Part shown: in pieces, positions 37,877-38,704 of the stretch
Layout of the letters: every line of letters starts with the position of its first letter
How positions within the stretch are numbered: position 1 is the stretch's first letter
Notes under the pieces: model-generated
Told to the model about the DNA's origin: nothing
What the model saw: the letters and a program-made list of their open reading frames with translations, nothing else
The model's database searches: none
Made by a program: the position numbers and the translations under genes
Sequence record: NC_054920.1
Length of the DNA stretch: 64,000 bases
From: Escherichia phage vB_EcoM_G9062
Strand: one strand, 5' to 3'

Positions 37877-37952
37877 TGGTCGAGGCAGTAGGGATCGAAC
37901 CTACGACCCAGGACTTAGAAGGTCCTTGCTCTTCCTTCTGAGCTATGCCTCG
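37877..37952 (-). tRNA. tRNA-Arg (anticodon TCT)
   Basis: cloverleaf with acceptor CGAGGCA/TGCCTCG, anticodon loop CTTCTAA, T-loop GGTTCGATCC, encoded CCA. Confidence 0.85.
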
Positions 37953-37956
37953 TATT

Positions 37957-38031
37957 TGGCGGACGTGATAGGATTCGAACCTATAACCAATCGCTTAACA
38001 GGCGATCGCTCTGCCATTGAGCTACACATCC
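37957..38031 (-). tRNA. tRNA-Asn (anticodon GTT)
   Basis: acceptor GGATGTG/CACGTCC, anticodon loop CTGTTAA, T-loop GGTTCGAATCC, encoded CCA. Confidence 0.8.
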
Positions 38032-38035
38032 AAAT

Positions 38036-38122
38036 TGGTGGGGAGTGGTGGAGTCGAACCACCCGAGTCGCAATGACAATGAATTTACAGTCCACACCGC
38101 TACCTCTACGGGATAACTCCCC
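38036..38122 (-). tRNA. tRNA-Tyr (anticodon GTA), type II with long variable arm
   Basis: acceptor GGGGAGT/ACTCCCC, anticodon loop CTGTAAA, T-loop GGTTCGACTCC, 87 nt with CCA. Confidence 0.75.
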
Positions 38123-38131
38123 AAATTAATT

Positions 38132-38206
38132 TGGTGGCCCTGGGTGGAATTGAACCACCATCTGGCGATTATGAGTCGCTTGCTTGAACCTTCCAGCTAC
38201 AGGGCC
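38132..38206 (-). tRNA. tRNA with CAT anticodon (probably tRNA-Ile, lysidine type; alternatively Met)
   Basis: acceptor GGCCCTG/CAGGGCC, anticodon loop CTCATAA, T-loop GGTTCAATTCC; sits where T4 has tRNA-Ile. Confidence 0.6.
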
Positions 38207-38207
38207 T

Positions 38208-38283
38208 TGGTGCTGATTGACGGAATCGAACCGCCGATCTTCTCATTACAAGTGAGTTGCTCTACCTACTGAGCTAAATCAGC
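38208..38283 (-). tRNA. tRNA-Thr (anticodon TGT)
   Basis: acceptor GCTGATT/AATCAGC, anticodon loop CTTGTAA, encoded CCA. Confidence 0.85.
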
Positions 38284-38288
38284 AAAAC

Positions 38289-38378
38289 TGGCGGAGGCGA
38301 TAGGATTTGAACCTATGAGTCGCCGGAGCGACTGCCGGTTTTCAAGACCGGTGCATTAAACCACTCTGCCACGCCTCC
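38289..38378 (-). tRNA. tRNA-Ser (anticodon TGA), type II
   Basis: acceptor GGAGGCG/CGCCTCC, anticodon loop CTTGAAA, long variable arm, encoded CCA. Confidence 0.85.
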
Positions 38379-38380
38379 AG

Positions 38381-38454
38381 TCTCCGTGGCAGGATTTGAA
38401 CCTACGACATTCTGCTCCCAAAGCAGACGCTCTACCAAACTGGGCTACACGGAG
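38381..38454 (-). tRNA. tRNA-Pro (anticodon TGG)
   Basis: acceptor CTCCGTG/CACGGAG, anticodon loop TTTGGGA, T-loop GGTTCAAATCC; CCA not encoded. Confidence 0.8.
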
Positions 38455-38463
38455 TAAATTAAA

Positions 38464-38538
38464 TTGGAGCGGATAATGAGAATCGAACTCACATCATCAG
38501 ATTGGAAGTCTGAGGTAATACCATTATACGATATCCGC
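38464..38538 (-). tRNA. tRNA-Gly (anticodon TCC)
   Basis: GCGGATATCGTATAATGG...CTTCCAA...GTTCGATTC matches my recollection of T4 tRNA-Gly. Confidence 0.85.
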
Positions 38539-38543
38539 AAATT

Positions 38544-38630
38544 TGGTGCGAGAAGTGGGACTCGAACCCACAAGGAAATCATTCCGCAGCATTTTAAGTG
38601 CTGTGCCTTTACCAATTTGGCCATTCTCGC
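38544..38630 (-). tRNA. tRNA-Leu (anticodon TAA), type II
   Basis: GCGAGAATGGCCAAATTGGTAAAGGCACAGCACTTAAAATGCTG... matches my recollection of T4 tRNA-Leu. Confidence 0.85.
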
Positions 38631-38631
38631 G

Positions 38632-38704
38632 CTGGGAATAAAGGACTCGAACCTTTGCATCCTGGAATCAAAATCCAGTGCCTTACCAACTTGGCTAATT
38701 CCCA
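38632..38704 (-). tRNA. tRNA-Gln (anticodon TTG)
   Basis: acceptor TGGGAAT/ATTCCCA, anticodon loop TTTTGAT, T-loop GGTTCGAGTCC; 1-nt spacer to tRNA-Leu. Confidence 0.8.

Follow-up and report, generated by a model that had tools for sequence, protein, structure and literature searches.

What does the transfer RNA (tRNA) region of Escherichia phage vB_EcoM_G9062 represent, with genes for tRNA-Tyr and tRNA-Asn standing where phage T4 encodes the endonuclease SegB? We addressed this question in a window of 64,000 nucleotides (nt) of the phage genome (NC_054920.1), the whole stretch of DNA analysed here, in which an earlier note had described a cluster of ten tRNA genes. The cluster is very probably the form of the T-even (Tequatrovirus) tRNA region that lacks segB, as known from T2L, RB1 and RB3. 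The ten-gene arrangement is already known: it is the majority form and was published in 2008.

We called tRNA genes with ARAGORN on the whole window and searched with the models of Rfam. ARAGORN returned 11 calls, every one on the minus strand and spanning 37609-38704. Ten of these are ordinary tRNAs (37877-38704), with exactly the limits and identities given before, and both the Tyr and the Asn gene, for which this check had been proposed, were called. In the order of transcription they are Gln(UUG), Leu(UAA), Gly(UCC), Pro(UGG), Ser(UGA), Thr(UGU), a tRNA with the anticodon CAU, Tyr(GUA), Asn(GUU) and Arg(UCU); nine of the ten were matched by the Rfam tRNA model with 60-74 bits. The genes are tightly packed as described, but the ARAGORN limits give spacers of 0-10 nt instead of 1-9 nt. 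The search for a protein gene within the cluster yielded merely overlapping frames of 41-86 amino acids (aa) with TTG or GTG starts, and none in the intergenic gaps. The interval from the CAU tRNA to tRNA-Arg, said to hold no protein-coding gene, indeed contains tRNA-Tyr and tRNA-Asn and no gene for a protein. All coordinates are compiled in Table 1.

The comparison with T4 (NC_000866) defines the difference between the two clusters. T4 has eight tRNA genes, and segB (666 nt) sits between its tRNA-Ile and tRNA-Arg genes, as the earlier note stated; the small open reading frames (ORFs) that the note also placed there are not in that interval, as trna.2, trna.3 and trna.4 lie upstream of tRNA-Gln. 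Position, strand, flanking genes and terminator are shared, the Gly and Ser genes are identical over the length annotated in T4, and Leu (86/87), Thr (72/76) and rnaC (137/139) are near-identical. T4 differs in having segB in place of Tyr and Asn, other alleles of Ile, Arg and Pro, and another anticodon arm in tRNA-Gln. Homology between the window and T4 extends from rnaC through the 3′ part of tRNA-Arg and begins again close to the 5′ end of the CAU tRNA. Because the CAU tRNA and tRNA-Arg, with 47/75 and 50/76 positions identical to the Ile and Arg genes of T4, are distinct alleles as well, the difference is an exchange of a block and not two genes put into a gap. ARAGORN thus bore out that Tyr and Asn stand at the position of the T4 endonuclease, but they are not simply extra genes, since the whole block differs. 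On sequence comparison, the CAU-Tyr-Asn-Arg block of vB_EcoM_G9062 is replaced in T4 by an Ile-segB-Arg block.

Two further T-even phages place this block in context. T2 carries the CAU-Tyr-Asn-Arg block, with an ORF instead of tRNA-Thr and a further ORF after tRNA-Arg. The Asn, Arg and CAU tRNAs of the window are 100% identical to those of T2, and the tRNA-Tyr of T2 differs by one base. T6 is a third mosaic, composed of a T4-type tRNA-Ile, a tRNA-Tyr of the type seen in the window, segB and a T4-type tRNA-Arg; its annotation has no tRNA-Asn, tRNA-Pro or tRNA-Ser genes.

Two genes outside the block also vary. tRNA-Gln has nine differences from its T4 counterpart, all within the anticodon arm (loop UUUUGAU in the window, CUUUGAC in T4), with no difference elsewhere in the molecule. 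Each allele is common: 289 records are at least 99% identical to the window gene and about 235 are T4-like. Gene conversion, or selection exerted by anticodon nucleases, could explain why the dimorphism is limited to this arm. tRNA-Pro is identical to T4 and T2 at 62-63 of 75 positions, with changes in the anticodon, T and acceptor stems; its CCA is not encoded, as in T4.

We then determined how widely the segB-less form occurs. A query of 1301 nt covering the cluster matched 1017 phage records, 457 of them with at least 80% coverage. The full Tyr-Asn pair was found in 433 records, compared with 126 for the segB of T4. In RB3 (KM606994), the ten tRNA genes recur in unchanged order, rnaD and rnaC come next, and the region is collinear with 97.6% identity over 1095 nt. 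Over 6 kb around the cluster, the window shows 99.9% identity to Yersinia phage PYps35T, Shigella phage JK08 and Escherichia phage a15, and the same ten tRNAs are annotated in a15 as well as in fFiEco06, there with tRNAscan scores. The flanks match too: upstream ORFs of the window correspond to trna.2, trna.3, trna.4, ip5 and ip6 (by phrogs and annotations), and an e.8-like ORF lies downstream at 35831-36214.

The arrangement was described by Brok-Volchanskaya et al. (2008), who determined the sequence of this region in T2L, RB1 and RB3 and found segB missing and tRNA-Met(CAU), Tyr, Asn and another Arg present (PMC2330249). RB3 has the same genes in the same position between trna.2-4 and e.8 and, like T4, no annotated gene from rnaC to e.8. 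T2 itself lacks tRNA-Thr, and the window adds two phrog_2280 genes and duplicated terminators after rnaC. The earlier note had named a T4 reference already carrying these ten genes as evidence that would tell against it. T4 itself has eight, but RB3 and hundreds of relatives carry all ten, so that, together with the 2008 paper, the claim of a distinct arrangement falls in spirit if not to the letter.

The relation between the two alleles involves SegB homing. The major cleavage site of SegB is a 27-bp sequence with the core GGTTCRANTCC inside the tRNA-Asn gene; homing excludes the Met/Tyr/Asn/Arg block, and in crosses the T2L allele was converted to the T4 allele (PMC2330249). A motif scan found this core, GGTTCGAATCC, in tRNA-Asn of the window, the comparison being with the core of the 27-bp site. 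By tblastn, no significant SegB homologue was found in the 64-kb window (best E = 0.15); this best weak match was discarded, as it lies antisense inside a 660-aa baseplate ORF. In the proposed course of events, the T4 allele has its own tRNA-Ile, segB and its own tRNA-Arg in the place of CAU-Tyr-Asn-Arg, SegB cuts preferentially within the tRNA-Asn gene of segB-less phages, and in a mixed infection the CAU-Tyr-Asn-Arg block would be displaced by the T4 block. Given this preference, vB_EcoM_G9062 appears as a homing target and not as a novelty.

One member of the block requires a closer look at its identity. ARAGORN and most public records label the CAU tRNA as Met, from the anticodon alone, and the 2008 study likewise names the gene tRNA-Met (PMC2330249). 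Among 5,426 complete E. coli genomes, all best matches to the CAU tRNA were annotated as tRNA-Ile. It is identical at 62/76 positions to a prophage tRNA-Ile(CAU), at 58/76 to ileX of K-12 and at 51/77 to metT, and its anticodon stem-loop, GCGACUCAUAAUCGC, is identical to that of ileX. The acceptor stem, GGCCCUG/CAGGGCC, contains the pairs C4-G69 and C5-G68, which Ikeuchi and colleagues are said to have identified in 2005 as the pairs that let TilS separate tRNA-Ile2 from tRNA-Met; its G1-C72 pair excludes initiator identity. Codons of the window were counted in 82 ORFs that do not overlap (17,865 codons), and those of E. coli K-12 in a sample of 42 annotated genes (14,790 codons). AUA occurs 13.0 times per 1000 codons in the former and 2.4 times in the latter (5.4-fold), and AUG is not enriched. 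From the similarity to ileX and the prophage tRNA-Ile, the C4-G69 and C5-G68 pairs and the demand for AUA, the gene is most likely a predicted lysidine-type tRNA-Ile2 reading AUA, as had been suspected from its anticodon; on similarity and codon demand, a Met identity is less likely. The prophage tRNA-Ile that is its closest E. coli relative lies beside the antiterminator Q gene (E. coli M19 chromosome, 2290599-2291274).

The same codon counts bear on the use of the whole cluster. For every phage tRNA, the cognate A-ending codon is enriched over the E. coli sample, for instance (per 1000 codons, window versus E. coli) UUA with 29.4 versus 10.1, GGA with 23.0 versus 6.0, UCA with 19.8 versus 5.2, ACA with 18.6 versus 5.4 and AGA, about 10-fold, with 11.7 versus 1.2. 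The most over-used amino acids are Tyr (1.78-fold; 46.2 versus 26.0), Lys (1.77-fold) and Asn (1.59-fold; 59.8 versus 37.6). The comparison of codon usage proposed in the earlier note thus placed Tyr, Asn and AUA all above the host sample. Eight tRNAs of the cluster would read A-ending or rare codons that are far commoner in the AT-rich phage than in E. coli, and tRNA-Tyr and tRNA-Asn would augment the supply of two of the three amino acids in which the phage proteins are most enriched.

For tRNA-Tyr, a second role is suggested by published work on T6, the tRNA-Tyr of which is identical in sequence (87/87). Chihara et al. (2026) found that PtuAB of the Septu defence system cleaves the variable arm of tRNA-Tyr, that an extra T6 tRNA-Tyr restores infection under Septu, and that T4, which lacks tRNA-Tyr, is the most Septu-sensitive T-even phage and yields no escape, and that T2 is resistant (PMC13096335). 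Under Septu selection, SegB amplifies the Tyr-segB segment of T6 (PMC13096335); the T6 gene thus differs from that of the window, which has no segB beside it, in being amplifiable. A related case is the tRNA-Tyr of the T5 family, which evades the PtuAB of retron-Eco7 (Azam et al. 2024, PMC11555353). It shares the variable-arm core GUCAUUGCGACUCG and the D arm with the window gene but has about 80% identity and another genomic context, and cleavage is reported to fail on it but to occur on the T6 sequence, to which the window gene is identical. In vB_EcoM_G9062, tRNA-Tyr may therefore replenish the host tRNA-Tyr, or act as a decoy, when PtuAB of Septu or retron-Eco7 cuts, as shown for the identical T6 gene. 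Both supply and counter-defence are plausible roles for tRNA-Tyr, and for tRNA-Asn supply alone has support.

That both tRNAs serve translational supply alone, meeting the demand of an AT-rich proteome with no part in defence, is unlikely. Tyr, Lys and Asn head the enriched amino acids of the window ORFs, and the phage Tyr and Asn tRNAs have anticodon loops identical to those of the host, which hence give no sign of an escape by the anticodon loop. However, the identical T6 tRNA-Tyr has a measured effect against Septu, and T4, without the gene, is the most sensitive phage (PMC13096335). Moreover, the tRNA-Tyr family keeps, across phages, a variable arm 2 nt longer than that of the host at exactly the location cut by PtuAB, and T4 thrives in the laboratory lacking both genes.

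The converse proposal, that tRNA-Asn too is a counter-defence tRNA, restocking a host tRNA cut by some nuclease, with the SegB cut as a weapon between phages, we regard as quite unlikely. A possible model for such a nuclease is colicin E5, which targets the anticodons of the queuosine family (Tyr, His, Asn, Asp). Unrelated phages (Felixounavirus, Jiaodavirus) also often have Tyr and Asn genes together in one tRNA cluster, which fits this proposal but is explained equally well by amino-acid demand. If it were true, SegB cutting of tRNA-Asn would strip a competitor phage of a gene for defence evasion.

No finding speaks against the identification of the region as such, but several points limit the account of its function and history. 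To our knowledge, no defence role has been reported for tRNA-Asn. A phage tRNA-Asn gave no rescue from PrrC (PMC11555353). The T6 tRNA-Tyr is itself cut under Septu, and its protection is dose-dependent, partial with a single copy and helped by SegB amplification (PMC13096335). As no segB was seen in the window, the amplification route of T6 would be unavailable to vB_EcoM_G9062, for which we infer the functional roles. Finally, neither T4 nor T6 has a remnant of tRNA-Asn beside segB, where generic tRNA similarity alone was found, and in the absence of such a scar the direction of the historical change rests on the logic of homing and on allele frequency.

This missing scar also fits a different history, in which Tyr and Asn were recently gained by an ancestral T4-like cluster of eight genes, instead of the T4 allele having been altered by segB homing. 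Identity of the tRNA-Tyr gene reaches 95% with a Vequintavirus and 79-91% with other unrelated phages, which shows that such genes move horizontally. We nevertheless consider a recent gain very unlikely: the segB-less form is more than three times commoner, SegB has been shown to turn the T2L allele into the T4 allele (PMC2330249), T6 with its tRNA-Tyr adjoining segB is an intermediate that fits an invasion by segB, and a simple insertion would have left the Ile and Arg alleles alike, yet both differ.

The account further requires that the two genes encode functional tRNAs. tRNA-Asn forms a regular cloverleaf with a GUU anticodon and a G ahead of CCA, and has the top Rfam score in the cluster (74.1 bits). 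G73 is an identity element for AsnRS. The cloverleaf of tRNA-Tyr has a GUA anticodon, A73, a variable-arm stem of 3 bp and one C-C mismatch in the D stem; with the tRNA-Sec model, a clan-mate in Rfam, it reached 30.9 bits, below the threshold of that model. We aligned eight tRNA-Tyr sequences (the window phage, T2, Vequintavirus, Certrevirus, a T5-like phage, Felixounavirus, Jiaodavirus and tyrV of E. coli). Standard pairs occupy 94.8% of the cells and compensatory changes affect 12 of 24 pairs, distributed over four of the five helices across the phage family. The observed covariation was reached by none of 500 shuffles, slid controls came nowhere close, and the D-stem mismatch with its odd D arm is kept throughout the phage family. 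More than 400 genomes carry both genes in near-identical form, and for the T6 tRNA-Tyr, to which the window sequence is identical, detection by northern blot and functional rescue are published (PMC13096335).

That either gene is a decaying pseudo-tRNA, unexpressed or uncharged, is scarcely credible: tRNA-Tyr does have the poorest score of the ten (tRNAscan 51.2 in record MG781190, besides its low tRNA-Sec score), and in addition to the mismatch its acceptor and D stems are separated by three bases, but the family-wide D arm, the compensated helices, the blots and rescue for the T6 sequence (PMC13096335), and the best score and expected G73 of tRNA-Asn, together with the near-identity of both genes in so many genomes, all speak against decay.

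The phage tRNA-Tyr family itself spans unrelated coliphages. Identity to the window gene amounts to 95% in Vequintavirus, 91% in Certrevirus, about 86% in Felixounavirus and about 80% in T5-like phages, compared with 58/87 positions for tyrV of E. coli. Its members have in common the longer variable arm and the unusual D arm. This distribution suggests horizontal spread among phages.

Beyond the ten tRNAs, the region contains the genes for rnaD and rnaC, stable RNAs known from the corresponding part of T4 (PMC3014915). rnaD begins directly after tRNA-Arg and is followed by rnaC, which is far better conserved in comparison with T4 (137/139 versus 100/119 identical positions). The 3′ half of rnaC has a tRNA-like fold with a perfect T arm and contains the SegB core GGTTCGAATCC at 37632. 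It accounts for the 11th ARAGORN call (“tRNA-???”, 37609-37704), which was rejected as an additional tRNA. The a15 and fFiEco06 records place small hypothetical coding sequences (CDSs) over rnaD and rnaC. By analogy with T4, the ten tRNAs, rnaD and rnaC would form one minus-strand unit that stops at the terminator (37559-37529), and its single transcript would presumably be matured by host RNase P and other enzymes.

This terminator had been noticed before, together with an exact repeat of it, and both exist. It does not directly end the tRNA cluster, as had been stated, but follows 318 nt past tRNA-Arg, after rnaD and rnaC, and the offset of the repeat is 555 bp instead of 556 bp. The first copy reads AGCCCCGACCGAAAGGTTGGGGC-TTTTT, with the stem at 37559-37536 and the T-run extending to about 37529; the exact repeat comprises 34 nt (36974-37007 and 37529-37562). 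Between and beyond the two copies lie the two phrog_2280 genes. T4 has a single copy of the terminator followed by e.8, with no gene between, and fFiEco06 has the first gene-terminator cassette alone. As judged from these sequences, the terminator repeat is the footprint of gene-plus-terminator cassettes inserted into a variable region.

The arrangement resembles the PeSL cassettes of T4-type phages, in which repeated stem-loop terminators flank an accessory gene (Arbiol et al. 2010, PMC2839356). A PeSL consists of an early promoter and a stem-loop terminator and mediates modular shuffling (PMC2839356). No sigma-70-like promoter was found on the minus strand beside the repeated terminators (37559-37536 and 37004-36981). 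We therefore rejected a full PeSL for the duplicated terminator: the stem-loop half is present and the promoter half is missing.

For the two phrog_2280 ORFs of 157 and 187 aa, Pfam gave nothing above threshold. Their products begin with MKSYTQFLNEA and MKTYAEFLTEA, respectively, and the internal-protein gene at 39734-39979 begins with MKTYQEFIAE. Such MK[ST]Y..FL.EA starts resemble the capsid-targeting N-termini of the internal head proteins of T4-type phages. Based on this resemblance, the two ORFs may encode extra injected internal proteins, and, if so, they would be candidates for anti-defence functions.

Table 1 Features of the tRNA region of Escherichia phage vB_EcoM_G9062, in the order of transcription (positions in the 64,000-nt window).
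Feature	Position	Strand	Evidence and comparison
tRNA-Gln (UUG)	38631..38704	-	ARAGORN ttg; Rfam 67.4 bits; 65/74 identical to T4
tRNA-Leu (UAA)	38544..38630	-	ARAGORN taa; Rfam; 86/87 identical to T4
tRNA-Gly (UCC)	38465..38538	-	ARAGORN tcc; Rfam; 74/74 identical to T4, T2 and T6
tRNA-Pro (UGG), no encoded CCA	38380..38454	-	ARAGORN tgg; Rfam; 62/75 identical to T4
tRNA-Ser (UGA)	38289..38378	-	ARAGORN tga; Rfam; identical across the 87 nt annotated in T4
tRNA-Thr (UGU)	38208..38283	-	ARAGORN tgt; Rfam; 72/76 identical to T4
CAU tRNA, most likely tRNA-Ile2, T2-type allele	38132..38206	-	75/75 identical to T2, 47/75 to T4 Ile
tRNA-Tyr (GUA), class II, long variable arm	38036..38122	-	ARAGORN gta; 87/87 identical to T6
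tRNA-Asn (GUU), discriminator G73	37957..38031	-	Rfam 74.1 bits; 75/75 identical to T2
SegB recognition core GGTTCGAATCC in the T arm of tRNA-Asn	37971..37981	-	Motif scan with the consensus of PMC2330249
tRNA-Arg (UCU), T2-type allele	37877..37952	-	ARAGORN tct; 76/76 identical to T2, 50/76 to T4
rnaD (species 2 stable RNA)	37756..37875	-	100/119 identical to T4; annotated in RB3
rnaC (species 1 stable RNA)	37610..37749	-	137/139 identical to T4
Intrinsic terminator, end of the tRNA/rnaD/rnaC unit	37529..37559	-	10-bp stem, GAAA loop, T-run; present in T4
157-aa ORF, phrog_2280, between the terminator copies	37012..37485	-	Absent from T4
Exact second terminator copy	36974..37004	-	
187-aa paralogue, phrog_2280	36323..36886	-	Absent from T4 and fFiEco06
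Third terminator, different stem	36296..36314	-	T4 homology resumes directly after

As a discovery, the arrangement carries little weight, having been published in 2008 and occurring in annotated genomes by the hundreds. Its value lies in annotation. Entries for rnaD and rnaC should replace the spurious small CDSs of several records, and the CAU tRNA is probably tRNA-Ile2 and not tRNA-Met. The sequence of tRNA-Tyr is that of a documented anti-Septu factor, and vB_EcoM_G9062 can be annotated as a predicted target of SegB homing. The Ile, Arg, Gln and Pro alleles, distinct from those of T4, show that the tRNA region of T-even phages is a mosaic.

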